From Candidatus Buchananbacteria bacterium (GTDB lineage Bacteria; Patescibacteriota; Patescibacteriia; 2-01-FULL-39-33), in the NCBI GenBank assembly GCA_041666945.1, contig JBAYFY010000002.1:701-64700 (forward strand): a stretch of 64,000 bases of DNA. Reading direction: 5' to 3'. The notes below the pieces were generated by a model. It was given only the letters and a program-made list of their open reading frames with translations, made no database searches and was not told the DNA's origin. This document shows, piece after piece, positions 18,213 to 36,504 of this stretch. Numbering within the stretch: the stretch's first letter is position 1; the number at the start of each line of letters is the position of its first letter. A program made the position numbers and the translations under genes.

Positions 18213-18511
18213 ACATTAATAAATAATAAGGATTAACACTAATTAAAATTAAGGCGTGTGTTTCCCGATAAGTTTTAGTCCGCTTTCGCTTATTGCAAAT
18301 TTTCAAGAATGGCGGAACAAGGAAAATTTTCAAATTTTCTAACATAAATAAATACCTGCTTAGGGCGGGTATTTATTTTTTTTACTTTCCGGCATCGCCG
18401 GACAATAACTTGATTAAGAGTAAAATTGTTCCCAAGATAAATTTGGCGCCGCCGGCAAAATTATGTTATAATTAATACGTCTCCGATTGCGACAATCGGA
18501 CAAATAACGAC

Positions 18512-20290: not shown

Positions 20291-20355
20291 ATACCGCTTT
20301 GCAGTAATTTTGCTTTTAGCATTATTTAATAAGGTGAACTATTCGTTTAATCAGT

Positions 20356-22407
20356 ATGACCGAACCAAATAACAACGTAACAATTTTCGGCGAAACCAAC
20401 TATCGCAACGCGCAACGATCTTTCGGGATTAAGCGCGACGATCGGCGGCGCCATATGTATGTCATCGGTAAAACCGGCATGGGAAAAACCACCCTGCTGG
20501 AGAATCTTATTATTTCCGATATTTTAAACGGCGAGGGCTGCTGCTATATTGATCCGCACGGCGATACGGCGGAAAAGCTGTTGGATTTCATTCCGCCGCA
20601 CCGCATTAACGACGTAATTTATCTCAATCCGGCCGATGCCGAATTCCCCATCGCTTTCAACGTATTGGAATCGGTGGATGAAATCAACAAGAATTTCGTC
20701 GCCTCCGGCCTTATTTCAGTTTTTAAGAAGCTCTGGGCCGATTCCTGGGGTCCGCGTTTGGAATACATTTTGCGCAACACCATTTTGTCGCTTTTGGATT
20801 ATCCCGGTTCCACCTTGCTGGGCATCATGCGCATTTTGGTGGAAAAGGACTATCGCGAGAAGGTCGTGGCCAAAATCAAGGATCCGGTGGTGCGCAGTTT
20901 TTGGGTCAACGAATATTCCAAATGGAATGAGAAGACCTTGCAGGAAGTCATTTCACCCATCCAGAACAAGGTCGGACAATTCTTGTCTAATTTTTTAATT
21001 CGCAATATTGTCGGCCAGGTAACTTCCACCATTGATTTGCGGGAAATCATGGATAACAAAAAAATCCTTATTTTGAATCTGGCCAAAGGAAAAATCGGCG
21101 AAGACACTATGAAACTTTTGGGTTCCATGATCGTAACCAAGTTATATTTGGCGGCCATGAGCCGGGTGGATATTCTGGAAAAGGATCGCCCTGATTTTTA
21201 TCTGTATGTGGATGAATTTCAGAATTTTGCCACGGAAAGTTTTGCCAATATTTTATCCGAAGCCAGAAAGTACCGTCTCAATTTGATTGTGGCGCATCAA
21301 TACATTGAGCAATTGCCCGAAGAAGTGGCGGCGGCCGTGTTCGGCAACGTCGGCACTTTGATTTGTTTCCGGGTCGGCGCCGCCGATGCCGAGAAATTAG
21401 TATTGGAATTCGCGCCGTTTTTTACGGAAGAGGATCTGGTCAATCTGCCGGCTTTCGCTGTTTATCTTAAATTGATGATTGACGGCGTGTCTTCCGATCC
21501 GTTTTCCGCCGCTACTTTGCCGCCGCTGTTTGAAGAATATCGCACCAATAATAGCGAGAAGGTAACTTATGTTTCCCGCGAACGCTACGCCAACCCGCGC
21601 ACGGTGGTGGAAGACAAAATTAACCGCTGGAGCGCCACTGATTTGAGCACGCGGATGGGCGATATCGCCGCTCACGCCGAAAAAGGCGAATTAAAAATGG
21701 GCGAAGTGGTGCCGATGAAAGAACCGGTGGCCGGTCCGACGATTTCCTTGTCGGCTTTAGGCACCGGCACTTTGCCGTCTACGCCGCCTCGGCCGATGGT
21801 GTGGCCCAGACGTGACGAACGTCCGGTTAGACGCGATACCCGGTCTTTTAACCGCGATGGCAGGCAAGATGATCGCCCGCTTCGGCGCGATGACCGTTCC
21901 TTTCAGCGCGATGACCGCAGTTCACGAGATGTCCCCATGACGGAAAGACGGGAAGAACGCCCGCGAGAAGAGCGGCCGGACGACAGGCGCGTTGGCGAGA
22001 GCCGCGACAGTTACGGCCAACCGGCAAGAAAAGACGCGGGAGAACGCCGCGAGTTCGGCAAGTTTGACGCGAAGTGTTCCATGTGCGGCAATATGTTCAA
22101 GCTGAATTTTCAGCCGGAAAAGGGCCGGCCGGTGTATTGCGGCGATTGCTTTAAAAAAGTCAAAGACCAGCGACGCAAGCCGGAACCGGAACGCGAGCCG
22201 GCGATCAAGATGCTGGAACAATTGGTGCGCCGCGAAGATACGGATGATGCCCCGCCTTTGAGTTTGTCGTCGCTCCAGCCGCGTCAGCCGATTCTGCCGC
22301 CGCCGGATTTAAGCGCCGGACCGGCTATGCCATCAGCCGCTTTGCCGGATAATCCGCCGGCCGACGAGGAAGTGGAAGAGATCTATCAAACGAGACAGCA
22401 ACGATAA
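20356..22407 (+). CDS. TraD/VirD4/TrwB-like coupling-protein ATPase (no TM) with RD-repeat tail and zf-trcl-type zinc ribbon
   Basis: Walker A GKTGMGKTT followed by IDPHGD. Walker B FYLYVDEFQNF. C-terminal RRDxRSFxRDDR repeats, then CSMCGNMFKLNFQPEKGRPVYCGDC. Confidence 0.75.
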   Translation: MTEPNNNVTIFGETNYRNAQRSFGIKRDDRRRHMYVIGKTGMGKTTLLENLIISDILNGEGCCYIDPHGDTAEKLLDFIPPHRINDVIYLNPADAEFPIAFNVLESVDEINKNFVASGLISVFKKLWADSWGPRLEYILRNTILSLLDYPGSTLLGIMRILVEKDYREKVVAKIKDPVVRSFWVNEYSKWNEKTLQEVISPIQNKVGQFLSNFLIRNIVGQVTSTIDLREIMDNKKILILNLAKGKIGEDTMKLLGSMIVTKLYLAAMSRVDILEKDRPDFYLYVDEFQNFATESFANILSEARKYRLNLIVAHQYIEQLPEEVAAAVFGNVGTLICFRVGAADAEKLVLEFAPFFTEEDLVNLPAFAVYLKLMIDGVSSDPFSAATLPPLFEEYRTNNSEKVTYVSRERYANPRTVVEDKINRWSATDLSTRMGDIAAHAEKGELKMGEVVPMKEPVAGPTISLSALGTGTLPSTPPRPMVWPRRDERPVRRDTRSFNRDGRQDDRPLRRDDRSFQRDDRSSRDVPMTERREERPREERPDDRRVGESRDSYGQPARKDAGERREFGKFDAKCSMCGNMFKLNFQPEKGRPVYCGDCFKKVKDQRRKPEPEREPAIKMLEQLVRREDTDDAPPLSLSSLQPRQPILPPPDLSAGPAMPSAALPDNPPADEEVEEIYQTRQQR

Positions 22408-22442
22408 ATAATTTTTAATCGGCTGCTAGTTTTATGCCGTAA

Positions 22443-22584
22443 GCCAATATAGTCCCCCGGGGCAAGCCCCAGAGTAATAGAGATTGCGTACTAAATAACC
22501 CGGCAAGCCAAGCAGTATTTGACTATATTGGCGTCGCTCGCTCGGAATCCAGCGCTTTGAAGCGCTGGTTCGCTCGCTCACTAG
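22443..22584. repeat. MITE-like element copy A (12-bp terminal inverted repeats gccaatatagtc / gactatattggc plus GC-rich tail)
   Basis: Inverted partner found at 27532..27636. Internal palindromes. Sits in the intergenic region upstream of rubrerythrin. Confidence 0.7.
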
Positions 22585-22604
22585 CCAATAAATAAGTCAA
22601 TTAT

Positions 22605-23189
22605 ATGTCCGAAACCATCAAAAATCTGGCCAAAGCGTTCATCGGCGAATCGCAAGCCAGAAATCGTTATACCATGTATAGCAAAGTCGCTAAAAAGGAG
22701 GGATATGAACAGATTGCCGAGATATTTTTAATCACCGCGGACAATGAGCGTGAACACGCAGCCAAACTGTTTGAGGAAATCCAAAATTTGAAAAAACACT
22801 CCAAAGAGGATTTGGCGGCGATTAAGGTTGAAGCCGAAGCGCCCACGACTTATGGCACCACGGCGGAAAATTTAAAAGCCGCCATTGCCGGAGAGAATTG
22901 GGAATATGTTACCATGTATCCGGAGTTTGCCGCTAAGGCCGAAGAGGAGGGCTATGACAAGATCGCCACGCGTTTGAAATCAATCGCCATAGCCGAAAAG
23001 CATCATGAAGAAAGATACATAAAATTGTTGCGGCAAGTTGAAGCCGGTACGGTTTTCAAGAAGGAAGAAGAGGTTTGGTGGATCTGCCGCGAATGCGGTT
23101 ATGCGCATTTCGGCAAGGAAGCGCCCAAGGAGTGCCCGTCCTGCAACCATGCCCGGGCTTTTTATCAGCTTAAGTGCGAAGAATACTAA
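22605..23189 (+). CDS. rbr: Rubrerythrin
   Basis: Ferritin-like diiron motifs (EREHAAKL, E..H) plus C-terminal rubredoxin-like CRECG...CPSC. Confidence 0.85.
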   Translation: MSETIKNLAKAFIGESQARNRYTMYSKVAKKEGYEQIAEIFLITADNEREHAAKLFEEIQNLKKHSKEDLAAIKVEAEAPTTYGTTAENLKAAIAGENWEYVTMYPEFAAKAEEEGYDKIATRLKSIAIAEKHHEERYIKLLRQVEAGTVFKKEEEVWWICRECGYAHFGKEAPKECPSCNHARAFYQLKCEEY

Positions 23190-23200
23190 ATTAGTTAGTC

Positions 23201-23248
23201 GTTACTTAATGAAATACTTAAAATGTTACTTAATGAAATACTTAAAAT
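23201..23248. repeat. Perfect 24-bp tandem duplication (gttacttaatgaaatacttaaaat x2), giving four TACTTAA heptamers at 12-bp spacing
   Basis: Read directly from sequence between the rubrerythrin stop and the superoxide reductase start. Confidence 0.8.
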
Positions 23249-23301
23249 ATTGAATAAAATTACTTCAAAACTGCCAACTAACAATTAATTGCTAAAAACT
23301 T

Positions 23302-23673
23302 ATGAAACTAAACGAAGTTTACAAATGCCCGATTTGCGGCAATATCGTGGAAGTCGTTCATGTGGGCGGAGCGGCTCTGGTCTGTTGCGGCCAGGAGATG
23401 ATTTTGCAAGTGGAAAATTCCGTTGATGCCGCGCAAGAGAAGCATGTGCCGGTGATTGAAAAAACTGAAACGGGGATAAAAGTCAAAATCGGCGCCGCGC
23501 CTCATCCCATGGAAGAGGTCCATTATATTGAGTGGATTGAGATTATTGTTGATGATCGGGTTGATCGCAAATATTTGAAGCCGGGAGACGCTCCCGAAGT
23601 CGAATTCAATCGGATCGGAGAAAACATTACCGCCCGCGCCTATTGCAATCTGCACGGCTTGTGGAAAAAATGA
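23302..23673 (+). CDS. dfx: Desulfoferrodoxin-type superoxide reductase
   Basis: N-terminal desulforedoxin motif [12 protein letters not shown]...CCG. C-terminal SOR centre with YCNLHGLW. Confidence 0.85.
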
Positions 23674-23743
23674 TTTTGGACTGAAATTTAATGCCGATTA
23701 AAAATTAATCAAATCCAATCAAAATAATAAAAAACAGCCGCCT

Positions 23744-23776
23744 CCCATTCGGGTGGCGGCTTTTTGAAAGTGCGGA
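23744..23776. terminator. Bidirectional rho-independent terminator
   Basis: aaaaaacagccgcc-tcccattcggg-tggcggctttttg, flanked by an A-run and a T-run. Lies between dfx (+) and the convergent minus-strand operon. Confidence 0.7.
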
Positions 23777-23816
23777 TTAAGCGGATTAAGATGCCGTTAA
23801 ACAGGCCTAACTGTTT

Positions 23817-24392
23817 TCAGGTATTTTTTCGCTTGATGTCGAGATAGAGGGTTTGGTAAGATAACCCCTCGTTAATTAATGGTTCAGTTTTCAAGCCAAC
23901 CTTCAATCGGTAACCGGCGCTTCGGCATAGTGAAGCAAGTTCTTTGTATTGAGGCAGGTTTAGCACCTGTATCATAGTAACGGGGAAAACATCAGCCGCC
24001 TTTGTTTTTATATGGCGGCAAAACATCAGAAGACGGGGTGAATACAATATTACATCGTTTTGCGCTTCTTTAAAGAAAGAGGCGAATTGTTCAAGCGTCT
24101 GCGCTTGCAGTTTTTCTTTTGCTTCATGCTCAAATCCGTCGCCCGAGGCGTTACCGGGGGCTGGCGCCGGCGGTTCTTCCAAAGTTTGTTCCGCGACGAT
24201 AATCTTGTCAAAAACCTTGTCATAAATCCGTTCCAGCCAAAAGCCCGTTCCGTCGCTTCCGGCGGTAAAGCAATAACCATGCTCCAGCATGGTTGCCACA
24301 GCCGTTTGCGTGTCAACAGCCACAACAGCTATTACTTGATCAAGGGAACGGAATTCAAAAATTTTGGTCTTCAGCGTTTCTTCATCAGGCAT
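23817..24392 (-). CDS. Hypothetical protein
   Basis: 191 aa ORF, last gene of a three-gene minus-strand operon. No recognisable motif. Confidence 0.5.
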   Translation of the reverse strand: MPDEETLKTKIFEFRSLDQVIAVVAVDTQTAVATMLEHGYCFTAGSDGTGFWLERIYDKVFDKIIVAEQTLEEPPAPAPGNASGDGFEHEAKEKLQAQTLEQFASFFKEAQNDVILYSPRLLMFCRHIKTKAADVFPVTMIQVLNLPQYKELASLCRSAGYRLKVGLKTEPLINEGLSYQTLYLDIKRKNT

Positions 24393-24419
24393 ATTCTGTT
24401 CTCCTGCCGTTTCGGTGGG

Positions 24420-24971
24420 TTATTCTTTCCAATCAATAGTAACACTGATCAGGCCGGTATCTTCTTGGATTGTTGATTCATACCGCAGCTCATTCTTTAC
24501 GCAAAAATCCTCAATTATTTCGCCGGCGAAAGGCGCAAATTGTGTCAGATAAGCACTTTTGAATAAATTAATGATTTGTTGGGTTCTGGGCGGTTGATGG
24601 CGTTCAGAGCTAAGTCCGTCAATTTCATCTTTTAATAACTTATTCAAGTCAATGAAATCGAAACTGCAACTGGTTTTCTCTTTTTCAGCCGCCGCCATAA
24701 GCGTTTGCGGCAATTTTTCAATCAGATCATTAGCCCAATCAATAAACGGTTTCATTCGTTTGAGTCGCTCTTCCTGCTCTTTATCTTCCCTCACTCGTCT
24801 GCTGTTTTTAACATTTATCCGTAACAGTTGTCCGAGAGTGCTTTTCTTTTCGGAACTCTCATTTGTAGGATTTCCCATATTTTTCTCCTCCCAAGTTTTT
24901 TCGGTTTTTGGTTTGGCAGAAAATGAAAAATATACGGTAAAATCAAAATGCGGAAGATACGGCAAAATCAA
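24420..24971 (-). CDS. Hypothetical protein
   Basis: 183 aa ORF (the start may be the internal Met). Charged, low complexity in its N-terminal half. Confidence 0.45.
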   Translation of the reverse strand: MILPYLPHFDFTVYFSFSAKPKTEKTWEEKNMGNPTNESSEKKSTLGQLLRINVKNSRRVREDKEQEERLKRMKPFIDWANDLIEKLPQTLMAAAEKEKTSCSFDFIDLNKLLKDEIDGLSSERHQPPRTQQIINLFKSAYLTQFAPFAGEIIEDFCVKNELRYESTIQEDTGLISVTIDWKE

Positions 24972-25209
24972 AATTCAAAACTATCACGCCGTTAGACAGT
25001 TGCATCATGGCGGTTAAGCTGGCTTGTGGTATAACCTCGGTCACGGCAGATTTGGCCAATGATATTTGCGCTGTCGGATCTTTTAATGGTTTAATGCAAA
25101 TTAGTCCATTATCCAACCAAAAACAGGAGACATTGTCATCCAGCACCTGTTTTAAAGCGTTTTCTAAACCAGTTAACTGTTTTACGGTTGCGACGGGTTT
25201 GTCAGCCAT
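24943..25209 (-). CDS. Hypothetical small protein
   Basis: 88 aa ORF, first gene of the minus-strand operon, divergent from dnaG. Confidence 0.4.
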   Translation of the reverse strand: MADKPVATVKQLTGLENALKQVLDDNVSCFWLDNGLICIKPLKDPTAQISLAKSAVTEVIPQASLTAMMQLSNGVIVLNFDFAVSSAF

Positions 25210-25597
25210 GGTTGTCCCTCCTGTTGCAGCGTTGTTTTGGATTATTACTATTTTTTCTTACCCGTATAATCTTTATTTTTTTATCCTTTTTGCCCGCAGA
25301 CGCGTTTTGTTTATGCCCTCCCATTCAATTGTAAAGAACTTCAATGCCGTATATTATCATTTTTGACCGCATCTTGTCAATATTGCTTAAACCGTTGTAT
25401 TTATTGTATGATTTATAGGTCAAACGACTTTTCCGTTGTCATCCCCAAGTATCAATATGTAAGTGGAGAAGCTACTTTATAACGCAAGCGATTCCTCCGC
25501 CGCGTCCGTTATCCGTCAACCGAAAGAGGCGGGACTTCCGGTCGGAATGACAATATGAAGTGAATTTTATTGATAAACGTTAATTTACATCAAACCT

Positions 25598-27520
25598 GTG
25601 TCTTCCCCCGAGATAGAACAAATCAAAGCCAAAATAGACGTCGCCGAGCTCCTCGGCGAATATTTGAAATTGTTGCCGGCCGGCGCGGGAGCGTACAAGG
25701 CGCTCTGCCCCTTCCATAACGAGAAGACGCCCTCGCTGATGGTTTCGCCGGCTCGCGGCAGTTGGCATTGTTTCGGTTGCGGCGCGGGCGGGGATATTTT
25801 TGAGTTTTTAATGAAGATGGAAAATATTGATTTTCCCGAAGCGTTAAAAATTTTGGCGCAAAAGGCCGGCGTTGCTTTGTCGCGCCATCGGCCGGAAATC
25901 GCCAGCAGAAAAAACAACTTGTATGATATTTGCGATTTGGCCGCCAGGTATTGGCAGAAGGTGCTTGCGGAATCGCCGCGAGCGCAAGCGGCGCGCGATT
26001 ATCTGGCCGGCCGCGGCGTCAGTGAAGAGACGATAGAGAATTTTAAGATCGGTTACGCCATTGACGACTGGAGCAACCTTGTTGATTTTTTGAAGAAAAG
26101 GGGTTTTGCCGAACAGGAAATATTTTCTGCCGGCTTCACTGTCAGAAAAGAGCGGGGGAGCGGATATTATGACCGTTTCCGGAATCGCGTCATGTTTCCC
26201 ATCATTGACCACAACGGCCGGGTGTGCGGTTTTACCGGACGGACGCTGTCCAAGGATGAGCCGGCCAAGTATGTCAACACGCCCCAGACCGATGTTTATA
26301 ACAAAAGCGCCATCGTCTTCGCTTTGTATCAGGCCAAAAACGAAATCAGGAAACAGGATTTTGCCGTGGTGGTGGAGGGCCAGATGGACGCGGTCAGCTG
26401 CCATCAATACGGTTTCAAGAATACGGTCGCTTCTTCGGGTACGGCTTTGACCAAAGAGCAACTGCAACTGCTCAAACGCTACACCAATAATATTTGTTTC
26501 GCTCTGGATGCCGATGCGGCCGGCCAAAAAGCCACTGATCGCGGCAATGATCTGATTAATCAAATGGATAAAGTGGTGGTGGAGGGCCGGGACAGAAACG
26601 GCCGCGTTTCTCAATTCGTTGACCCGGCTTTGAGTTATAATTTGAACTTGAAAATAATCTCCATTCCCAGCGGCAAAGATCCGGATGAATGCCTGAAGAA
26701 GAATCCGGCGGATTGGGCGGAGGCGGTGTCTGCCGCCCAGCCGGCGCTGGAATATTTCTGGCGCGTGTCTTCAGCCGGCCGCGATTTGAGCGACCCGCAA
26801 ATAAAAAAACAAGTTGCCAAATTCCTGGGTGAGAAAATCGCCCGGCTGGATGATCCGATTGAACGCGATCATTGGCTGCAAGAGATCTCCCGCCGCCTGG
26901 GAGTAAGGGAAGAGGCCCTGCGGGAACTGGTCGCCAGGTTTGAAAGCCGGCTAAAAAGCCCCGCTGGGGCCCCTGTAAGGCCCCAAGATGCCGCCAGGTC
27001 AACCGTGCCCCAAAATACGACAAATGACCGGGATTTATTGATGTTTATGAGGATTTTGGCGTTAATCTGGACTTTTCCGGATTTTTTGGCCAAATTGGGG
27101 GATTATCTGGAACCGGAGGTTTGGATTGATCCGTTGGCCGAAGATCTTTACAAAAAAATTATTTTATTTTATACTGTAAACAACGAACTGTTTTCCATCA
27201 GCGCCGCTAAGCGGGAGGAACAAACCATATTTGACCTGTTTTATGACTGGGTCAAAACCCAAGCCGTGAGCGAGTCAGCGCTTAAAACACTCGAACAATC
27301 GTATCTTTTGGCGCAGAAGGATTTTGCCGATCTGGACGCCAAGGAAGCGAAAAACGAACTTGATACCCTTATCAGGTTGCTTAAAAGCAACTATCTTAAT
27401 GTCATGATTTCCCGCCTCAAGATAAAATTGGATGAAGCGGAGAAAACCGGCGACGCCGCGTCAGCCGAGAACATTTATTTGGAGTTATCCGAGCTGATTA
27501 AAAAGAAATCAGCGGTTTAG
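25598..27520 (+). CDS. dnaG: DNA primase
   Basis: Zinc-binding CPFHNEKTPS...CFGCG, TOPRIM VVEGQMD, GTG start. Confidence 0.9.
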   Translation: MSSPEIEQIKAKIDVAELLGEYLKLLPAGAGAYKALCPFHNEKTPSLMVSPARGSWHCFGCGAGGDIFEFLMKMENIDFPEALKILAQKAGVALSRHRPEIASRKNNLYDICDLAARYWQKVLAESPRAQAARDYLAGRGVSEETIENFKIGYAIDDWSNLVDFLKKRGFAEQEIFSAGFTVRKERGSGYYDRFRNRVMFPIIDHNGRVCGFTGRTLSKDEPAKYVNTPQTDVYNKSAIVFALYQAKNEIRKQDFAVVVEGQMDAVSCHQYGFKNTVASSGTALTKEQLQLLKRYTNNICFALDADAAGQKATDRGNDLINQMDKVVVEGRDRNGRVSQFVDPALSYNLNLKIISIPSGKDPDECLKKNPADWAEAVSAAQPALEYFWRVSSAGRDLSDPQIKKQVAKFLGEKIARLDDPIERDHWLQEISRRLGVREEALRELVARFESRLKSPAGAPVRPQDAARSTVPQNTTNDRDLLMFMRILALIWTFPDFLAKLGDYLEPEVWIDPLAEDLYKKIILFYTVNNELFSISAAKREEQTIFDLFYDWVKTQAVSESALKTLEQSYLLAQKDFADLDAKEAKNELDTLIRLLKSNYLNVMISRLKIKLDEAEKTGDAASAENIYLELSELIKKKSAV

Positions 27521-27531
27521 TTTTTATTGGA

Positions 27532-27636
27532 TAGTGAGCGAGCGACGCCAATATAGCCAAATACTGCTCGGCTTGCCGAGTTGTTAGTACGCAAGTTCTA
27601 TTATCGCCCCAGGGTTTACCCCGGGGGACTATATTT
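27532..27636. repeat. MITE-like element copy B (inverted relative to copy A)
   Basis: Its reverse complement aligns to 22443..22584 at roughly 80 percent with small indels, and it has the same terminal inverted repeats. Lies between dnaG and rpoD. Confidence 0.7.
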
Positions 27637-27651
27637 TAAAAACAATTCGTC

Positions 27652-28911
27652 ATGTCAAAAATAAAAAAGAAAAAACCGGCCAAGAAGCCGGTTAAAATCA
27701 AAGCCAAAAAAAAGTTGGCGCATCATTTGCCCAAAGCGCGCAAGCCGACCAGAGGCAAGAAATCGCGCAAAGCCAAGGCGCGAGCCAAGGAACCGTTGCG
27801 CCAGATAGCCCTGCCCAATCCGTTGGAGATTGAGGCGGTGATGAAGAAAGGCAGGATCCGCGGTTTTGTAACCGAGCAGGAATTGGCGTTGCTCTACCCG
27901 GAGATAGAAGAATACGTTGACCAGTATGAAGGCATGCTGGATGATTTGGATTATGCCAATATCGCCGTCGTGGAAGCGCCGTCGCTTCTGGGCAAACCGC
28001 CGACAGGCGTGCCGCCGCCGCCGCTGACGACCAAAGAAAAGAAAGCCGCCAAGATTTCCTTGAGCGAGAATATTGATTTGGGCGATATTTCCGCCGACTC
28101 CATTCAGATGTATCTGCGCGAAATCGGCAAGGTGCCGCTTCTGCATACCGAGGAAGAGATTTCTTTGGCCAAGCGGATTGAGCGCGGCGATGTGGAAGCC
28201 AAGCAGAAATTGATTAAGGCCAATTTGCGCCTGGTGGTTTCCATTGCCAAAAAATTCACAGGCAAGAACCTGTCGCTTCTGGATCTGATTCAGGAAGGCA
28301 ATATCGGGCTGTTCCGCGCCGTAGAAAAATTTGATTATCACAAGGGCTATAAATTTTCCACTTACGCCACTTGGTGGATCCGCCAGGCCATTACCCGCTC
28401 GCTCGCGGACCAATCGCGCACCATTCGCATTCCCGTTCACATGGTGGAGAACATTAATCGTTTTCAGCAAGTGGAACGGCGTTTGGTGCAGGACTTGGGA
28501 CGCGAACCCATGCCTGAGGAGATTGCCGCGGAAATGGGCGAGGAATTGGAAAAGGTTTTGCACATCTTAAAGATTTCGCAGGAGACGATTTCGCTGGGCA
28601 CGCCCGTGGGCGACGACAGCGAGGACTCGGTGCTGGAGGATTTTATTGAAGACCAGAAAACCTTGACGCCGGATCGCGCCGCCGCTTTGCGCATTTTAAG
28701 CGATTATGTGAGACAGGTGATCAGCGAGCTGACGCCGCGCGAACAAAAAGTGTTGGAAATGCGTTTTGGCTTGCGCGATGGCGTGGCCCATACTTTGGAA
28801 GAAGTGGGCAAGGAGTTTGATGTTACCCGCGAACGTATCCGCCAGATTGAAGCCAAGGCGCTGGAAAAGATTGAAAAGATACAGGGGATTGAAAAGCTAA
28901 GGGATTACTAA
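27652..28911 (+). CDS. rpoD: Primary RNA polymerase sigma factor (sigma-70 family)
   Basis: Lys-rich N-terminus. Region 2 motifs ([26 protein letters not shown]...[13 protein letters not shown]). Region 4 [24 protein letters not shown]. Confidence 0.9.
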
Positions 28912-28959
28912 AAATAAAACGGCCGCCTGCGTAAGACGGTCGTTGTCGTTAAAGTTCGT

Positions 28960-29397
28960 TTAAATTCCTTTGGTTTGCGCCCGGTTGCCCGATTGCGCCG
29001 CTAATTTCATCAGTTCTTCCAGTTTTTCAATGAAGTCGGCCGGTACGGGGCCAGTGGTAAGTTCGCCGGACAAGTAGCCGATTCTGGTGCCGTTAAATAT
29101 TTCGTTAATGCTTATTCCCCGGGTTTGCAGTCGGCCGTGTTGGCTTAGCGGTTGCGTCATAACATCGTTTATGAACTCTTGGGGCGGTTGCCAGCGATGA
29201 TCGGCGATATAATGCAGGATCATATCAGGCATAACCCAACGGTGTCCGTTGGCGAAGGTCAGATTAACGTCGCCGGAGGATAGGTGGGAGAAACGGTTTT
29301 CTTTGCCATCAGTATGGCAGAACTCGCAGACGTGGAAACCCATGGTTTTATCTCCTTGGTTAAGTGGTTTTTTACAGAACTTCAAATCAATATTCAA
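28960..29397 (-). CDS. Hypothetical protein
   Basis: ORF of 145 aa. The true start may be the internal Met, giving about 128 aa. Possible N-terminal CxxC...H metal site (HVCEFCH). Confidence 0.45.
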   Translation of the reverse strand: MNIDLKFCKKPLNQGDKTMGFHVCEFCHTDGKENRFSHLSSGDVNLTFANGHRWVMPDMILHYIADHRWQPPQEFINDVMTQPLSQHGRLQTRGISINEIFNGTRIGYLSGELTTGPVPADFIEKLEELMKLAAQSGNRAQTKGI

Positions 29398-29432
29398 TTA
29401 TAGCGCATTTCACGGTGTTTGTCAATAGTTGA

Positions 29433-29516
29433 CGTTGAATCCTGCCAAGCCGGGTTTTTCCACAGGACAAATAATCTTGACAACCGCCTGTTTTTTTGCT
29501 AATATTATTAACACTA
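29433..29516 (+). promoter_or_regulatory. 84-bp repeat copy 1, containing consensus sigma-70 promoter (TTGACA-17-TAATAT) for tRNA-Asn
   Basis: TTGACA at 29477..29482 and TAATAT at 29500..29505. Near-identical copy at 40003..40086. Confidence 0.7.
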
Positions 29517-29539
29517 TTACCTTAAAACGAGTTCTAAGC

Positions 29540-29613
29540 TCAGCGGTAGCTCAACGGTAGAGCAACCGGCTGTTAACCGGTAGGTTACTGGTTCGAATCC
29601 AGTCCGCTGAGCC
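29540..29613 (+). tRNA. tRNA-Asn (anticodon GUU)
   Basis: Cloverleaf folded by hand. Acceptor TCAGCGG/CCGCTGA, D stem GCTC/GAGC, anticodon stem ACCGG/CCGGT with loop CTGTTAA, T stem ACTGG/CCAGT with TTCGAAT loop, discriminator G followed by CC. Confidence 0.85.
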
Positions 29614-29759
29614 TATAACTCGTTTTACGATTTTCGCCTCCCATGCGGAGGGAGAGCTTATAACTCGTTTAATTAAAATATCCGTCTTTATGGCGAATAT
29701 TTTAATTATGTAAAATAGATTAAGCCGTTTGAAAATTTGGCATAAAATAAACGAAGGGA

Positions 29760-30008
29760 GTGTATAACATGGCTTTGAAAGTTTTGGATCCCAAGTCTGC
29801 ATTGCGGGCAATGGAGCTATCGCGCGGGTCTTATCGGCCAAAAGAGATTATTGAATTGAAAGAAGCGATAGACGGAGAAACGCGGGCGAGCGAATTGGCA
29901 GCGTCCGTTTCCGGTGTCGTTGATTTAGAACGGGTAAAGAAAATTGTTGCCATGAAAATCCAATTGGATGGTTTGTACATTGATTGGATTGAAGGAAGGA
30001 TATCATAA
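29760..30008 (+). CDS. Hypothetical small protein (first ORF of island)
   Basis: 82 aa ORF with no motif. Weak call. Confidence 0.3.
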   Translation: MYNMALKVLDPKSALRAMELSRGSYRPKEIIELKEAIDGETRASELAASVSGVVDLERVKKIVAMKIQLDGLYIDWIEGRIS

Positions 30009-30251
30009 GGGGATTATAATAGTTGCGTCGCCGTGAGTGGTGACGCTTTTTTTTTATTTAAAACGTAAGGTTTGACTGAATCCGGACGGGTCAGAAACGA
30101 GACAACTTTTGTTACGTAGTATGTTACGTAACAAGAAATGTGTTGTCAAATAATTTTTATATATTTACCCGCTCTCCCGTGTGCGTAAACTGCACCCTCT
30201 TGATAATTATTCTAACTTTGAATATTCTTATATTGAATATATCATAAAGGT

Positions 30252-30473
30252 ATGCCAAAGACAATACATACAGACGAATATCAAAGAATTACCGAACGGC
30301 TCAAACAAGCCAGGGTTGATGCTGATTTCACACAAGAAGAAGTGGCTAAAAGAATTAAAAAGCCCCAATCTTATGTTTCTAAAATTGAGGCAGGGGAGCA
30401 GAGGATTGATATTATTGAACTTAAAGTATTTGCTAAACTTTACAAAAAGGAAGTTGATTATTTTATTCAATAG
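30252..30473 (+). CDS. XRE-family HTH regulator, likely R-M controller (C) protein
   Basis: 73 aa. LKQARVDADFTQEEVAKRIKKPQSYVSKIEAGEQ is a canonical Cro/C1 HTH. Sits 4 nt upstream of the next ORF and is convergent with the MTase. Confidence 0.8.
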   Translation: MPKTIHTDEYQRITERLKQARVDADFTQEEVAKRIKKPQSYVSKIEAGEQRIDIIELKVFAKLYKKEVDYFIQ

Positions 30474-30477
30474 ATAT

Positions 30478-31449
30478 ATGGAAAGGATAAATTATAAGGA
30501 ATTAATAGAGAAGTATCCTTGGGTTGTGGAAAAAGATCATGATTGTATATTGAGCCCAGACAGCGACGGTTTGCTGTGCGGTCTTTTTATGGCACATTAT
30601 TTGAATTGGAAAATAAGGGGATATTACGACGGAAAGGTATTAATTGTTGATAAAGGTGTAGATTTGCGTGAGTGTGTATTTTTGGATATGGAGATTTTTC
30701 GTAAAGAAATTAGAAGTGTGGGCCATCATATGGTGCTTTATAATAAAAATAAAAAACCGGAATCCTGGCATAATTTTGAGAATTGTGTTCAGCCGAATAA
30801 TTTACGTGATTATGATGGCGCCAAAAACTTCCCTTTAAAATATCCGTTAGCGACAATTCATTTATTGATTGGTATATTAAATAGTAAATTTTCAATTGAT
30901 ATTTCTGAATCGGCTATTTGTCCCTTATTGTATACAGATGGAGTTTTTAAAAATTTATTTGGATATCCGGAAAATTGTTTGGATTGGCTGAATTATCTTG
31001 GGGCAAACAATAAAGAAACAGCATTACATCAGATATTTCATAATGATTATTACTCCATTCATGATTTAATGGACGCTTTGAAGGATTTTTTTGAAAAAAT
31101 ATCTAATATTGGTGAAGGTAAAAGGGGTAATGATAAAATTAAAATATCAAATACTAAGAGCGAATTGGTAAATTTAGAAAAATCAGAGGATTGTTATTTT
31201 ATTAATAATGAAGCGAAAATAAAGGCCACAAAGTTTATAATGATATTATCCGAGTTGACGGGTTGGAAATATAAGGAAAATCATTGGTTATGGTCTGGTT
31301 TTAAAGTGATTAAATTCGAAAAATCTAAAATAAAACCAAATAATAAAAATTTTGAATTTTTATTGTCAAAAAATCCGCTGTCTTGGGCTATGACCAGCGG
31401 ATTAGATATAGAATACACTTTAGATCCTGATAATCTTTTATTAAAGTAG
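30478..31449 (+). CDS. Putative type II restriction endonuclease (position-based inference)
   Basis: 324 aa AT-rich ORF between the C-protein and the convergent MTase. No family-level motif recognised. Confidence 0.4.
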   Translation: MERINYKELIEKYPWVVEKDHDCILSPDSDGLLCGLFMAHYLNWKIRGYYDGKVLIVDKGVDLRECVFLDMEIFRKEIRSVGHHMVLYNKNKKPESWHNFENCVQPNNLRDYDGAKNFPLKYPLATIHLLIGILNSKFSIDISESAICPLLYTDGVFKNLFGYPENCLDWLNYLGANNKETALHQIFHNDYYSIHDLMDALKDFFEKISNIGEGKRGNDKIKISNTKSELVNLEKSEDCYFINNEAKIKATKFIMILSELTGWKYKENHWLWSGFKVIKFEKSKIKPNNKNFEFLLSKNPLSWAMTSGLDIEYTLDPDNLLLK

Positions 31450-32934
31450 TTTGTTTTGAAGTGTTTGTCTTTCTTCTTTTATTCGTTTTTTTGCCAACTC
31501 GCAATATTCTTCTGAAATTTCAAAACCAATATAGTTTCGGTCTTGATTGATGGCGGCCAATGCAGTAGTGCCGCTTCCTAGAAATGGGTCAATAACAATC
31601 CCTTTAGGCGGACAAAAACATTGAATAAAATCAACTGGTATTTTATCTGGAAAAGTTGCCGGATGTTGATGTTTTAAACGGGTTCCGTCACCGCAAGTTA
31701 CATAATCCCAAATCGTCCCCCTACATTTCAGAGGATTTATTGTTACTTTATGGGATTGTAATGTTTTGCCGTTCGTTAATCTCGTTGCGCATCCAGTCAT
31801 GGTTTTACCGCCATGTTTTGATGGTATTTTTAAATGATCTTTTTGAAAATATTGCGGTCTCTCTCCCTTCAGAAATATTGGGATATATTCGTGATCGACC
31901 CTGAATCTTTTAGTCCACCAGGCGCCTTCGGCGCCGTGTTTTTTATAAATAACAGTTTCGAATAGTTTAAATCCAATATTATCGCACCAATCAATAATAG
32001 TACGAAATGATGTTAGTGATTTACCAAAGTTTTTGGTTTGATCTTGGATTACCATTATTGCAACTCCTCCGTTTTTCAAAATTCGAAAAATTTCTTTTCC
32101 CGTATCATGCAAATTATAATTGAATCCATTATAGTCCCTTACGCTGTCGTAGGGAGGGGAAGTAACTATTACGTCAATTGAATTGTCTGGTAATCTTTTC
32201 ATTCCTTCAACGCAATCCACACATTGTACCGTGTTAAGAACTTGTTTTAAATTCAATTCCCTGTTTATTTTTTGGTCATAATCATGAGACGTACTATTGT
32301 ATTCAAATGTTATATTTGGTTGCTCTTGTTTGATAATATCAAAAACGACTCCCTGAATATTAAATTTTTGATTTTTGTTTACTATAATCGGGCTAAATTG
32401 CTTATTAGCCGGTTGAAGCCGTATTTGATTTTTTTCTTTATAGTATCTTTTTAATGTCGCCTCAGTGTTATTAATCAACGCAACAACTCGATCTCCATTA
32501 TTAGCGGTTTGTTGATTTTTAACTAAAATAATATCGCCGTTGTTAATGTTTTCATCAATCATGCTATTACCACTAACCTTTAAAGCATAGAAATTACCGT
32601 TAGATGGTAAATTTGACTTAGGTACCGCAATGGTCTCCCTTTCTTCAATTGCTTCAATTGGTTGACCGGCGACGATAGTGCCAAAAAATGGAACCTGAAT
32701 TAAGAGTTCGCTGGAAAAAATATCAATGCTTCTGGCATGGTTCTCTGTTTTGTTTAAAAATCCCTTATCTTTAAGTGCCTCAATGTGTTGATGAACCGTG
32801 CTAACTGATAGTTTAAAATGCTTTCCGATTTCCTCAAGAGAAGGGGAATATCCATTTTTTTTGATGTAATCCTTAGTGTAATTAAGGATTTCTTTTTGTC
32901 TTGGGGTTATCATATTTGACTTTATTTTGAGCAA
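31441..32934 (-). CDS. Fusion: LexA-like repressor (wHTH + S24 autopeptidase) :: beta-class N4/N6 DNA methyltransferase
   Basis: N-terminus matches LexA (PRQKEIL..., GNSM catalytic Ser, TLKRY catalytic Lys). C-terminal part has motif IV VTSPPY before motif I DPFLGSGTT. This is the pfam N6_N4_Mtase order. Confidence 0.8.
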   Translation of the reverse strand: MLKIKSNMITPRQKEILNYTKDYIKKNGYSPSLEEIGKHFKLSVSTVHQHIEALKDKGFLNKTENHARSIDIFSSELLIQVPFFGTIVAGQPIEAIEERETIAVPKSNLPSNGNFYALKVSGNSMIDENINNGDIILVKNQQTANNGDRVVALINNTEATLKRYYKEKNQIRLQPANKQFSPIIVNKNQKFNIQGVVFDIIKQEQPNITFEYNSTSHDYDQKINRELNLKQVLNTVQCVDCVEGMKRLPDNSIDVIVTSPPYDSVRDYNGFNYNLHDTGKEIFRILKNGGVAIMVIQDQTKNFGKSLTSFRTIIDWCDNIGFKLFETVIYKKHGAEGAWWTKRFRVDHEYIPIFLKGERPQYFQKDHLKIPSKHGGKTMTGCATRLTNGKTLQSHKVTINPLKCRGTIWDYVTCGDGTRLKHQHPATFPDKIPVDFIQCFCPPKGIVIDPFLGSGTTALAAINQDRNYIGFEISEEYCELAKKRIKEERQTLQNKLL

Positions 32935-33227
32935 GATTTATTATATAAGTATTATACCGAAAATAAACCGAAAGTAGAAGTTGAGTTATCCACAGCAAAC
33001 ATTGCTAATGTGTTGCATATGATTTTATTAAATGGAATAATTGCCAAAAGTCTATTGGCGCGCTAAAATTGAAGCAAATATGGCCTGTGATATCAAAAAT
33101 CACCGAAAACTCAGAATGATAAGTTAGAAGGTTCTAATAGTTTGAGAACATCAATTAAATAAAAAATACTTTGTTTTAATCACCTTGAAAATAATAAGAT
33201 TTCTTAAAAATAATTGACGATAATAAT

Positions 33228-33578
33228 ATGGATCTTAAAAATTTTACAAAACAAGCCATTTTAGAAATTACCGAGGCCGTTAAAGAAATAAATATTGATA
33301 GAGAGGTTTTATTGGTATCCGGCAAGGATAAGCGAACAATAGAATTTGATGTGGCCGTAACTGTTGAGGAAAATAGAGCTACAACTGGCAGTGGACAGAT
33401 TCAAGTGCTAGGTCTTATTCGGGGAGAGGGCGATATTAAACAAGAAGTTAAAAATGCTACTGTTAGCAGAATTGAATTCGGTGTTTCGATAGCAACAGCA
33501 ACAAAAGCCGAGATTGAAAAGCAACGATTAGAAATCGAAGCGTATAATAGAAGAAATCAAGATTCTAGTTATAAATAA
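33228..33578 (+). CDS. Hypothetical protein, probably co-transcribed with Abi-like gene
   Basis: 116 aa. The following gene starts 18 nt after its stop. Confidence 0.45.
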   Translation: MDLKNFTKQAILEITEAVKEINIDREVLLVSGKDKRTIEFDVAVTVEENRATTGSGQIQVLGLIRGEGDIKQEVKNATVSRIEFGVSIATATKAEIEKQRLEIEAYNRRNQDSSYK

Positions 33579-33596
33579 TAGAATTTATAACTTTTT

Positions 33597-34646
33597 ATGG
33601 AAAGCGAATTAGAGTCTTGGCAGATAACAGATTTTAATTTGAATGACAATCAGCTCAAGATTGACAAGCTTGGTCTTATAAAAATAATTAGAAGTGATGA
33701 TGGTATTTTAACTCTTGTTAGTGACGCAAATTACGGGGTCATAGATCATGAAAAACCCTCACCGGCAAAGTTTGCTAACAATGATTCTATTTTGGGGTTT
33801 ATACTTGATATAGGCATTAGAAGAGAAAAAGTGCTTGCCAGTGGACATGGTTTTTATTTCGGTAGATCAATAATTAGGCCCCAATCCTCAAAAATTATTT
33901 CTCAGAATGATTTCGATGAGGAATTATTTGAAAAAATCAGTGATATCATTAACAGCAAATATCAATCCAATAATAAACAAGAAGAAACGGAGGCAATAAG
34001 ATTGAGGTTTTTATTTGATACATACAATAATGCTCGTCTTTTATTCCCTAATTTTTTATCAGAAAGTTATCTTAACCTATTACGAATTATCGACGCATTA
34101 AGCGTTAAGAGGCACGCTGAAAGTTTCGCTCTATTCGCAGCAATGATTTCCTCAGATTTAAATGATGCAATTTATAATAAAGTAAATATTATAGAGGGAT
34201 ATAAGGATAGAATAGATTATGCGGCTGATTTATTTAAAAATTTAATGGAGAAAAAAAATATTGAGAGATCCTGTAAAGCTGAAATGGGTAAATTAAATGA
34301 TAAAGGAAAGTTTATTTTTTCTTGTTTCTATGTTGCTTACCAGTACAGAAACAAATTTGTTCATCTCGGCTTCCCATTTCCAGACACCGTTAAGAATTCT
34401 TATGGCTTAAAGGATGGCTCCGGTACTGCATTTTTAAATCCAGCGCTTGGTATTTATTGGCGAAAAGTTTATAGGCCGAATGGAATCGAAGATGGCGATT
34501 TAATAGACATACATCAATTTATGCCCGACGAAGAAGAGGCGCAAAAATTTAAAGACGAATATTTTAAGCTTCTGCCAACTTGGCATTTTGTAAAACAACT
34601 AACTAGAGAGGCGTTACGGAAAAAAATTATTAACGAATCTAAATAA
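33597..34646 (+). CDS. Abi_2 / AbiD-AbiF-like abortive-infection protein (HEPN Rx4H)
   Basis: 349 aa. YQYRNKFVHLG matches the HEPN R-x4-H motif typical of Abi_2. Size and AT-rich context fit. Confidence 0.55.
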   Translation: MESELESWQITDFNLNDNQLKIDKLGLIKIIRSDDGILTLVSDANYGVIDHEKPSPAKFANNDSILGFILDIGIRREKVLASGHGFYFGRSIIRPQSSKIISQNDFDEELFEKISDIINSKYQSNNKQEETEAIRLRFLFDTYNNARLLFPNFLSESYLNLLRIIDALSVKRHAESFALFAAMISSDLNDAIYNKVNIIEGYKDRIDYAADLFKNLMEKKNIERSCKAEMGKLNDKGKFIFSCFYVAYQYRNKFVHLGFPFPDTVKNSYGLKDGSGTAFLNPALGIYWRKVYRPNGIEDGDLIDIHQFMPDEEEAQKFKDEYFKLLPTWHFVKQLTREALRKKIINESK

Positions 34647-34795
34647 AATTATATGGAAAAATATATTCGCAAAGTAACTCATGCCGGCAAAATAATCCTG
34701 TCAATCGTTATCCCGACAGAAATCGTGGATGAATTAAAGATAAAAGAAAAGCAGAAATTGACCATAACGACAAAATGCAAGAGTATTATTAAAGA

Positions 34796-35476
34796 TTGGA
34801 AATAGTTTTAATTATGATTCCAAAACAAGAAAAAATATATAATGAATTAGGTAAACAATTAGTTAATTGTAATTTTAACTGTTCCGGTATTAATAATAAT
34901 AAAAAGTTCGGGTATTTTCCTCGGCTATTATTTATAGAAAAAGGAAATGATAATGGAAAAGGAGCAATTATTATCGGATTAAATCCAGGCAAGTGTGGTG
35001 AATCAGAACGAAAGTGGGTTAGTAAAAATCAAGATTATTGGGTTAATCAAAAAGATTATTATAGTAATAATTTATTAAAGTGGAAGTATTTTCGTCGCGT
35101 TAAGGAGCTATTAAATTTACTTGGTTATCAAGGTGATATCTTATGGACAAATTTAGTAAAATGTGAGTGCATCGGTAGTAACGGAGATTTACCGATACAA
35201 ACCATAAGGACATGTGTAAACAAATTTTTAAAGAACGAAATTGATAGTTTATTGCCTCAGTGTGATATATTTGCCATAGGTAACCAATCTTTTGGGATTA
35301 GTTCGGTGGCATTTCCTAATAATTTTGTAATTGGGTTGCCCCATTCATCTGGTCCGTATGCTTCAACTAAATTTTTACGATTGTTAGAAAAAATTAGAAA
35401 AGACAAAAAAAAGTATTTAAACATAATTAATAAGAAAGGGGATAATAATAATCAGATTTTAGCAATAAAATTATAA
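34796..35476 (+). CDS. Uracil-DNA glycosylase superfamily-like protein (MUG/TDG-like motifs)
   Basis: GAIIIGLNPGKCGE (motif A, compare the GINPG of Mug) and GLPHSSGPY (motif B, compare NPSGLS). Confidence 0.5.
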   Translation: MEIVLIMIPKQEKIYNELGKQLVNCNFNCSGINNNKKFGYFPRLLFIEKGNDNGKGAIIIGLNPGKCGESERKWVSKNQDYWVNQKDYYSNNLLKWKYFRRVKELLNLLGYQGDILWTNLVKCECIGSNGDLPIQTIRTCVNKFLKNEIDSLLPQCDIFAIGNQSFGISSVAFPNNFVIGLPHSSGPYASTKFLRLLEKIRKDKKKYLNIINKKGDNNNQILAIKL

Positions 35477-35488
35477 AATGGTAATACT

Positions 35489-36238
35489 ATGAAAGTGGGT
35501 AGGAATGATCAATGTCCCTGTGGTAGCGGTCGAAAATATAAGCATTGCTATCAGGATCATGATAGCGGTTGTTTACAAAAATTAAAGGATGATAGAATTA
35601 AAATGTTAGCAGAACATAATGACCGTGAAAAAAAAGTATTTCGTTTTTTTAATGAAGTAATAGAAGAAACAAATATTATTTTATTAAAATCAGAAGATGG
35701 TCATGATAAGATTCAGTCACGAATACAAATGATTATTATTTTTAGTTTGGTCGACATGTTGGGCGGTTATTGGTATACGTTTCTCGGGCAGAATGGTAAA
35801 ACATTAGAGCGTCCAAAAAATTGGTACAACAAATACTGTGCTACTGAAGAGAATATACATTATAAAGATTTTTGGACGGAATTAAATGTTGAACGCTTGT
35901 ATGTTTTTAGAAATTCCCTCGTTCATTTTTTTGGATTAGGTGAAAAATACGATAATATATACATTTCACTCGCATCAAATAATTTGCCAGATAAAACGCA
36001 TAAAAATTGGCAAGAAGAATTTTCAAAAAAAGGAGACAAGACGATTATTATTAGACCAGAAGATTTTTATAATTTAATAAAAGAGGGTGGCGTATTGATG
36101 CTAAAAGAATGGGGGAATATGATTAAGCAAGCACAAACCAATAGAGATAAAGAGTGTTATTATATTAATGGCATAGAACGAGTCTGGGATAAGATTAGAA
36201 AAGAAGGGGCTGTAAGAATTCCAAGTAATATTAAATAA
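35489..36238 (+). CDS. SEC-C zinc motif + HEPN-like (Rx4H) domain protein
   Basis: N-terminal GRNDQCPCGSGRKYKHCY is near-identical in pattern to the SecA C-terminus. Later FRNSLVHFFGLGE is an Rx4H motif. Confidence 0.6.
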   Translation: MKVGRNDQCPCGSGRKYKHCYQDHDSGCLQKLKDDRIKMLAEHNDREKKVFRFFNEVIEETNIILLKSEDGHDKIQSRIQMIIIFSLVDMLGGYWYTFLGQNGKTLERPKNWYNKYCATEENIHYKDFWTELNVERLYVFRNSLVHFFGLGEKYDNIYISLASNNLPDKTHKNWQEEFSKKGDKTIIIRPEDFYNLIKEGGVLMLKEWGNMIKQAQTNRDKECYYINGIERVWDKIRKEGAVRIPSNIK

Positions 36239-36504
36239 TTTTAATAATTAGTTATAATTAGGCCGTCGCCGTCTGCCTGCCGGTAGGCAGGGCTTCAAAA
36301 ATCGTCATTGGGAAATTTTTGAAAAAAATTTCTTATTTTCTTAAGGAGGGAGGGCTTATAGCTTGTTTTACGCATCTCATCGCCACCTCCACAGGTGGCG
36401 ATTTGCGTTTCTACTAATATTTTTCAGCTTTCTTTTAATTTCACCACCGCTTCCCGCGAGAGCAAGGGGTGGCAAAGTTAGTAATTACCCATTTAATATA
36501 AAAA

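Follow-up and report, generated by a model that had tools for sequence, protein, structure and literature searches.

Defence hot spots beside tRNA genes are well described in Escherichia coli and Pseudomonas, and some of them have no detectable mobile element. In E. coli, 18 of 41 hot spots lie at tRNA loci, and hot spot 37 is without a detectable mobile element in 68% of cases (PMC10121019). Little mobile DNA or immunity has been documented in the Candidate Phyla Radiation (CPR, Patescibacteria), whose genomes are tiny. Here we analyzed an AT-rich stretch of about 6.2 kb that follows the rpoD and tRNA-Asn genes of a Candidatus Buchananbacteria bacterium (GenBank assembly GCA_041666945.1, contig JBAYFY010000002.1, forward-strand positions 701 to 64,700). 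These 64,000 nt are called the window below, and coordinates without a locus label count from its first nucleotide. An earlier note, made from the sequence alone, had described the stretch as a defence island integrated at tRNA-Asn and bounded by direct repeats. Our comparisons give good support to a variable hot spot 3' of rpoD-tRNA-Asn in this clade of Buchananbacteria. Positions 30060-36290 probably represent an acquired mosaic in this hot spot, with the repeats as recombination sites or scars.

The locus resembles the E. coli and Pseudomonas hot spots in its conserved core flanks, in the adjoining tRNA and in defence cargo that differs among genomes. It is unlike them in its CPR host, in the copies of the tRNA trailer and the 82-nt element that mark the slot, and in one relative with metabolic cargo. 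As in tRNA-targeting integrative islands, direct repeats derived from the 3' part of the tRNA flank foreign DNA immediately downstream of the tRNA. Unlike those islands, this one has no integrase, and 4 nt of tRNA plus 13-17 nt of trailer are repeated; moreover, the left copy lies off the compositional edge, and in a relative these repeats surround other cargo. As genomic islands go, the island is fairly ordinary, though of a kind little documented in this lineage. It shows that CPR bacteria, much like model bacteria, maintain a dedicated variable slot beside a tRNA, with defence cargo that changes from one close relative to the next. The trailer-copy repeats offer a handle on how DNA enters these genomes without a visible integrase. 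The features that define the slot are as follows.

29430..29517, + strand: tRNA-Asn promoter region, with TTGACA-17-TAATAT at 29477-29505; duplicated at 40000-40087
29521..29536, + strand: pre-tRNA leader; complements the trailer and repeats the core in inverted orientation
29540..29613, + strand: tRNA-Asn(GTT), native; CCA not fully encoded; the single tRNA of the window
29609..29629, + strand: repeat copy 1, GAGCCTATAACTCGTTTTACG; last 4 nt of the tRNA region plus trailer
29647..29673, + strand: repeat copy 2, beginning GGAGGGAGAGCTTATAACTCGTTT; 24 nt identical to the end of element 'a' in the relative L002
29769..30008, + strand: orf79, small protein of unknown function; 40%-identical homologue in locus L035
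30025..30046, + strand: intrinsic terminator 3' of orf79; the compositional island starts just past it
36291..36372, + strand: conserved spacer element of 82 nt with repeat copy 3 at its end (36345-36372); shared with L002
36379..36402, + strand: intrinsic terminator after the 82-nt element; conserved in element 'b' of L002

In 500-nt sliding windows, GC content was 0.28-0.35 from about 30000 to 36300, compared with about 0.50 on either side. The AT-rich island is the lowest-GC 6.3-kb stretch of the window (0.322; window mean, 0.436), and positions 30060-36290 have a GC content of 0.321, as against 0.451 in the remaining window. GC content at third codon positions (GC3) is 0.22-0.29 in the eight island genes, except for a 50-codon open reading frame (ORF) with 0.41. 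The flanking genes range from 0.55 to 0.65 (dnaG, 0.60; rpoD, 0.65; DUF7919, 0.56; MVP-like gene, 0.55), so that GC3 falls by about 0.3, abruptly, at the island gene boundaries. The earlier note had drawn the island from 29614 to 36400. The GC drop and the GC3 contrast with the flanks bear this out, whereas the start has to be moved: the compositional island runs from about 30060, directly after the orf79 terminator, to about 36290. With a GC3 of 0.45, orf79 falls inside the range of other host genes in the window. It is probably native and outside the foreign block, because its homologue (40% identity) in the distant relative L035 stands about 390 nt past tRNA-Asn. The join is identical in two independent assemblies, ERZ27249449 contig k141_120855 (116 kb) and the 212-kb NCBI contig. 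That the DNA of 30060-36290 is of foreign origin is well supported.

The direct repeats are real. GGAGGGAGRGCTTATARCTYGTTT was found exactly twice in the window, at 29647 and 36345, where shuffles gave an expectation of 0, and the local alignment of the repeats scored 33 against a maximum of 26 across 200 shuffles. A third core copy, TATAACTCGTTTTACG, lies at 29614-29629, where it abuts the tRNA and matches the right copy through 'TTTTACG'. The three cores read GAGCCTATAACTCGTTTTACG (copy 1), GAGCTTATAACTCGTTTAAT (copy 2, 29654) and GGGCTTATAGCTTGTTTTACG (copy 3, 36352). Copy 2 is preceded by a hairpin, CCTCC-catgc-GGAGG. By inspection, the stretch between copies 1 and 2 (TACGATTTTCGCCTCCCATGCGGAGG) is similar to the stretch past copy 3 (TACGCATCTCATCGCCACCTCCACAGGTGG), which gives copies 1 and 2 the look of a tandem duplication, 45 nt long, that comprises the core and the hairpin. 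A comparison of the left compositional edge (30060) with the right end gave no repeat above shuffles.

Since the order rpoD, then tRNA-Asn, is kept across Patescibacteria, the tRNA-Asn is native. In this clade its CCA is not fully encoded. Pairing between leader and trailer lengthens the acceptor helix, and this pairing is kept through sequence changes in the relatives L002, L008 and L119. In Rfam searches of the window and of the right-hand element, only the tRNA was matched, with everything else far under threshold.

We then asked how widely the 82-nt element and the repeats occur. With an nhmmer profile of the element, none of the 119 fetched loci yielded a further copy. The element is likewise absent from the remaining window and from IMG/VR; in a pattern scan of JGI metagenomes, it turned up solely on the L002 contig. 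Because the element and the repeats are confined to this locus, they are not a generic terminator motif, the alternative raised in the earlier note. For the element, neither a consistent secondary structure nor an Rfam family could be identified. Several readings were tried and dropped. A small ORF with AAGGAGG as its Shine-Dalgarno sequence fails because start codon and frame are not conserved between the window and L002. As a promoter, the element has a poor -10 in every copy. An Xer/dif-type site does not fit the non-palindromic core, and there is no GC-skew switch at the locus. On inspection, the core likewise does not fit the R'/R'' sites of integrons. Comparison of the sequences shows that the repeats reproduce the 3' end of the tRNA together with its trailer and that they are specific to this locus.

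The closest relative, locus L002 (JGI Ga0265297_10000277; RpoD, 95%), has the same repeat architecture around different genes. Window positions 17339-29626 are collinear with L002 at 81-87% DNA identity, and the homology ends 13 nt past the tRNA. It returns only at 36291-36410, which corresponds to L002 18785-18904 (84%). The slot of L002 holds 6.8 kb of cargo: purD, two serine hydrolase genes, a radical-SAM gene and a DHODH-like gene. Past the element the right flanks differ, the window continuing with the MVP-like gene and L002 with a NUDIX gene, and no protein synteny between the two was detectable there. The 82-nt element with its terminator is thus the sole stretch right of the tRNA that both have in common. 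L002 has two copies, and a separate terminator stands behind each of them. The end of element 'a' (about 14650-14758) is GGAGGGAGAGCTTATAACTCGTTT, the sequence of window 29647-29670 without a difference, while element 'b' (about 18735-18865) ends in GAGCTTTGGACTTGTTT, the very variant found in the trailer of L002's own tRNA. Therefore, the repeat tracks each genome's own tRNA trailer. At all three sites, the repeat core coincides with the breakpoints of homology between the window and L002. Since in L002 the same architecture surrounds metabolic genes, the repeats mark a reusable slot, not the ends of this particular island. The idea of a tRNA-integrated island stands as far as foreign DNA in a slot 3' of tRNA-Asn is concerned, and that of repeats at its two ends has to be modified: they are locus-specific, but a third copy sits at the tRNA and the left one about 400 nt off the edge.

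More distant relatives carry still other cargo. In L008 (RpoD, 79%), the tRNA, trailer, terminator and downstream promoter are common with L002, and an SPFH gene and a 67-aa marker gene follow. In L119 (RpoD, 81%) and L007 (76%), a low-GC island comes directly after tRNA-Asn, trailer and terminator; in L119 its GC content is 0.30-0.40, compared with 0.49 upstream. Both islands (L119 12000-21344, L007 12210-20324) hold a type I restriction-modification (R-M) operon (HsdM, HsdS, HsdR) with embedded SoFic and Shedu SduA, and that of L119 additionally holds GmrSD. Defence genes thus occupy the slot in 3 of the 5 genomes examined (the window, L119 and L007), and the cargo of L002 and L008 is not defence-related. 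The arrangement expected of an empty site, tRNA-Asn followed by the MVP-like gene, was seen in none of the five relatives with data; L002 has both different cargo and a different right flank. A search of the GTDB representative genomes with the MVP-like protein turned up no relatives, and hence it cannot serve as a right-flank anchor. Because the cargo after tRNA-Asn differs among relatives, the slot is a variable hot spot.

We favour att-like sites because the repeats copy the tRNA flank, meet the L002 breakpoints, follow each genome's own trailer variant and are confined to the locus. Several observations count against an acquired mosaic with such sites. Pfam integrase and recombinase families match no called gene in the 64 kb and none of the island proteins, as the earlier note had seen by eye. 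Apart from 13-17 nt of trailer, the repeats include only 4 nt of the tRNA, less than the part of the gene that classical tRNA-targeting integrases duplicate. The left repeat lies outside the compositional edge at a distance of about 400 nt, and the interval holds the native-looking orf79; no repeat lies at 30060. In L002, the terminator and promoter to the right of the tRNA-proximal copy are ancestral, since L008 and L119 have them too, which is not what a simple attL would look like. A second trailer copy is absent within 6.5-9 kb in L119, L007 and L008. No empty site was seen, all five relatives with data carrying other cargo after tRNA-Asn, and neither was an excised form of the island. Flanking repeats are likewise absent around the related R-M modules next to tRNAs in loci L089 and L092 (see below). 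As regards the defence cargo, PADLOC recognised no complete system, only R-M parts, and the restriction enzyme is assigned by context alone. The missing recombinase, the duplication of just 4 nt of tRNA, the position of the left repeat beyond the edge and the ancestral L002 sequence all speak against a simple integrase model.

Some of these points would be accounted for if the hot spot were kept by homologous recombination that swaps foreign blocks in through conserved flanks (on the left the tRNA, on the right the 82-nt element or other conserved intergenic modules) and the repeats were functional RNA or terminator punctuation, such as trailer-mimicking 3'-processing signals. This would need no recombinase in the window, it would fit the good terminator of its own that follows every element copy, and the trailer is indeed structurally constrained, its pairing with the leader co-varying in L002, L008 and L119. 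In addition, the L002/L008 breakpoint lies elsewhere, past the shared promoter and not at the repeat, and the defence hot spots of E. coli and Pseudomonas often lack a detectable mobile element (PMC10121019). However, the breakpoints between the window and L002 fall at the repeat core in three of three sites. A general processing role is unlikely, given that the element was not found elsewhere; it has no consistent structure or Rfam family, and it holds no pairing partner for its trailer copy, so that just the distant tRNA leader could pair. We therefore hold this explanation to be possible but rather unlikely. A tRNA-anchored, integron-like cassette array, with the trailer as primary site, the element of about 82-115 nt as an attC analogue and a recombinase encoded elsewhere, seems decidedly improbable to us. 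L002 does have two consecutive 'cassettes', each ending in an element, the window has one plus a truncated element at the tRNA, and all cores share GAGC-TT-N4-CTYGTTT. Yet no intI-like gene adjoins and the window has no recombinase, the core does not match integron R'/R'' sites on inspection, the architecture is known from two genomes only, and the cassettes would be multi-gene units with their own promoters and genes on both strands.

That the stretch is simply a native AT-rich region, or an assembly chimera, is very improbable. Other lower-GC stretches do occur in the window (39750-42000 and 43000-46000), but this one is the most extreme, with a GC3 drop of about 0.3 that is sharp at gene boundaries. 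Moreover, the join is present in both independent assemblies (116 kb and 212 kb), the cargo is missing from L002, and the nearest homologues of the R-M module belong to low-GC CPR genomes. A decayed prophage or plasmid remnant is, if anything, still harder to credit. The lone methyltransferase domain on IMG/VR viral contigs (up to 72% identity) and the large serine recombinase next to homologues of the 349-aa protein would speak for it; on the other side, megablast of the island against phage and plasmid records gave no match, PHROGs gave no structural or replication matches in the island, and the rest of the stretch is not phage-like.

If positions 30060-36290 are an acquired mosaic, small selfish or defence-type modules from low-GC Patescibacteria may have been gathered by horizontal transfer in a hypervariable slot that opens at the tRNA-Asn trailer and closes at the 82-nt element and its terminator. 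The repeats would be att-like scars or site-specific insertion sites at the tRNA 3' flank, and the recombinase would have been supplied in trans or lost later. Later accretion, together with recombination that joins the repeated sites, could then have brought in new cargo or exchanged the old.

At its left end, the island carries a controller (C) protein gene, a restriction-enzyme candidate and a convergent LexA-methyltransferase fusion gene. Type II R-M systems controlled by C proteins are known, examples being those of the PvuII, AhdI and Esp1396I types.

30097..30146, + strand: palindromic candidate C-box, repeated GTTACGTA, upstream of the C gene
30252..30473, + strand: C (controller) protein, HTH_3, 73 aa (Pfam HTH_3, 7e-13)
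30478..31449, + strand: 323-aa candidate restriction endonuclease, assigned by conserved neighbourhood
31441..32934, - strand: LexA (HTH plus S24 peptidase) fused to a beta-class N6/N4 DNA methyltransferase (SPPY); convergent gene
32950..32994, - strand: putative promoter/operator region of the fusion gene; TGTGGATAAC at 32985-32994, DnaA-box-like; TTCGGT..TTCGGT abutting TATAAT

As in these systems, a small HTH_3 gene lies directly upstream of the presumed endonuclease gene behind a palindromic candidate operator, and the methyltransferase is of the beta class with SPPY. Unlike them, the trio has a complete LexA, with intact cleavage site and catalytic dyad, at the N-terminus of the methyltransferase, and its restriction-enzyme candidate matches no known family. 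PADLOC 'Control_protein' matches to the C protein are weak, and the public gene call omits the C gene and lengthens the downstream ORF to 358 aa (start 30373). The 323-aa protein had no match in Pfam, PADLOC, NCBIfam, PHROG or PDB; its conserved pairing with the methyltransferase suggests that it is the restriction enzyme.

The fusion is well defined. Its LexA part (residues 9-203) scored 179.4 bits with TIGR00498 (cutoff, 110.95) and 5e-34 against the PDB LexA entry 3k2z, and N6_N4_Mtase matched at 2.5e-38. In 17 fusion proteins, A89 and G90 (cleavage site), S124, K162, SPPY and FxGSG are invariant. The full architecture occurs in at least 120 clusters at 62-84% identity, nearly all from CPR. 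Public annotation calls the fusion merely 'transcriptional repressor LexA', and a literature search, which included a 2026 preprint on CPR methyltransferases, found no paper describing it. Translation of the fusion probably begins with the ATG at 32913. The public call uses the ATG as well, which is why a version with the TTG start is not on record. The methyltransferase domain without LexA (residues about 226-497) is found on the IMG/VR viral contigs L102-L116 at 51-72% identity.

The promoter layout of the fusion gene is kept in three other loci (L088, L089 and L091). In this layout, TGTGGATAAC, which is the reverse complement of a DnaA box and has the variants TGTTGATAAC and TGTGTATAAC, stands about 30 nt before TATAAT. 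Between it and the -10 there is a locus-specific direct repeat of 6-7 nt, the second copy of which abuts the -10. From their arrangement, these upstream motifs may be operators.

The trio recurs in three other genomic contexts, at five loci (L088-L092) in host genomes with a GC content of 0.34-0.42. The 323-aa partner is 40-62% identical in these loci, and the C protein is 57% identical in L089 and L090. In L089, the trio lies 117 nt past tRNA-Ser (10792-10877), and in L092, the gene of the restriction-enzyme candidate begins 14 nt past tRNA-Trp (4075-4146). The trio, already named as a module in the earlier note, is a conserved, mobile unit, probably a type II R-M system. Whereas the trio lies in the 3' flanks of tRNA-Ser (L089) and tRNA-Trp (L092), it is a homologue of the 349-aa protein described below, together with a large serine recombinase, that adjoins tRNA-Thr in L094. 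In CPR, insertions seem to land preferentially in the 3' flanks of tRNAs.

In such a unit, the C protein may time the expression of the restriction enzyme. The LexA moiety would repress its own methyltransferase gene, and RecA-stimulated self-cleavage could release it, giving more methylation during DNA damage. The fusion is the most interesting by-product of this analysis because it is common and well conserved in CPR, and it may link R-M to the DNA-damage response. A bolder proposal is that the trio represents an undescribed, CPR-wide class of SOS-coupled R-M that lodges preferentially right 3' of tRNAs without a recombinase of its own, as part of a tRNA-anchored cassette array shuffled in trans. 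If so, RecA-triggered self-cleavage of LexA would tune methylation, and the trailer and the 82-nt element would be the sites of a recombination system acting in trans on multi-gene cassettes; we think this unlikely.

The remaining cargo lies to the right of the trio, and all of it reads on the forward strand.

33228..33578, + strand: 116-aa ORF of unknown function; not conserved beside homologues of the 349-aa protein
33597..34646, + strand: 349-aa protein, uncharacterised, of a largely CPR family; Rx4H, HEPN-like at best
34653..34805, + strand: 50-aa AbrB/MazE-like ORF; weak matches only
34796..35476, + strand: probable UDG-superfamily protein, 226 aa (public call, 34814-35476); GLNPG, H183, four near-invariant Cys
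35489..36238, + strand: 249-aa SEC-C protein; N-terminal SEC-C zinc motif; RNSLVH (Rx4H)

Searches of the island with Pfam and PADLOC picked up no more than the C protein (HTH_3), the LexA-methyltransferase and the SEC-C motif. Of the defence content proposed from the sequence, PADLOC recognises the R-M components and nothing else in the island.

HEPN toxins of abortive-infection systems (Abi_2 or AbiD-F, and AbiV) were among the closest known systems that we compared. The 349-aa protein had been assigned to Abi_2 (AbiD/AbiF), with the 116-aa ORF as its upstream partner, and neither claim is supported. The protein does not match the Abi_2 family profile, nor do its homologue clusters, and the 116-aa ORF is not conserved next to its homologues. 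The protein has no Pfam or PADLOC match, and none of 72 homologue clusters has a Pfam domain. Its structure model gave nothing by Foldseek against PDB and BFVD, and neither did a search of the family sequences against PDB. Across 37 sequences of the family, R251 is invariant and H256 at least 90% conserved (Rx4H). Homologues lie near a large serine recombinase and toxin-antitoxin genes at tRNA-Thr (L094 3641-3716), or near type III Mod/Res genes.

The SEC-C protein was expected to combine SEC-C with HEPN. The SEC-C motif is recognised. The HEPN part, for which the motif RNSLVH in a single sequence is the evidence, is weakly supported, and a single-sequence structure prediction had a pLDDT of 36, too low to read the fold. 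Profile comparison showed no relationship between the 349-aa family and the SEC-C protein. The Rx4H proteins could be RNase-type toxins of abortive infection.

Brig1 is a defence glycosylase of the UDG superfamily. The 226-aa protein of the island resembles this superfamily in its GxNPG motif (with a MUG/TDG-like Asn), its conserved His and its four Cys, as in Fe-S family-4 UDGs. It differs in that the protein itself falls below detection by the Pfam UDG profile, and its place in the island is what suggests a role in defence. Through its homologues, the UDG assignment made in the earlier note is supported at the level of sequence: in a family of 363 representatives, 39 of 56 members match Pfam UDG PF03167 (best, 6.7e-11). 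The family profile hits the Thermus family-4 UDG 1ui0 weakly (E, 0.012). The protein may excise a base, possibly a modified phage base. Together with the largely CPR Rx4H family, a putative Fe-S UDG-fold protein in a defence context is thus also brought to light by this locus.

Beyond the right end of the slot lies the MVP-like gene (36575-39739, - strand). It codes for a protein of 1054 aa with an MVP_shoulder domain and, in its coiled-coil tail, internal repeats spaced by 87 nt (37140-37370). A unit of about 17 nt, tttctttatcctcttat, is tandemly repeated at 39790-39865, shortly before the gene begins. The tRNA-Asn promoter region (29430-29517) and its copy at 40000-40087 form an 88-bp direct duplication (92% identical). 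The copy at 40000-40087 is just upstream of the start of the MVP-like gene, which is divergent to it, and it points into a stretch of low GC content that holds small ORFs. Between them, the two copies enclose 10.6 kb with the tRNA, the island and the MVP-like gene.

In three relatives, L119 (11577-11841), L006 and L007, an insert of about 270-540 nt splits the anticodon loop of tRNA-Asn; that of L119 scores 84 bits with the Rfam group I intron model. A second lower-GC stretch of the window, 43000-46000 (0.36-0.40), codes for glycosyltransferases and hydrolases; this segment, too, may have been acquired, or it may be related to the envelope. Finally, intergenic inverted repeats of about 108 bp (83% identical) are present at 22446-22551, about 3 kb upstream of dnaG, and at 27528-27635, in the gap between dnaG and rpoD.

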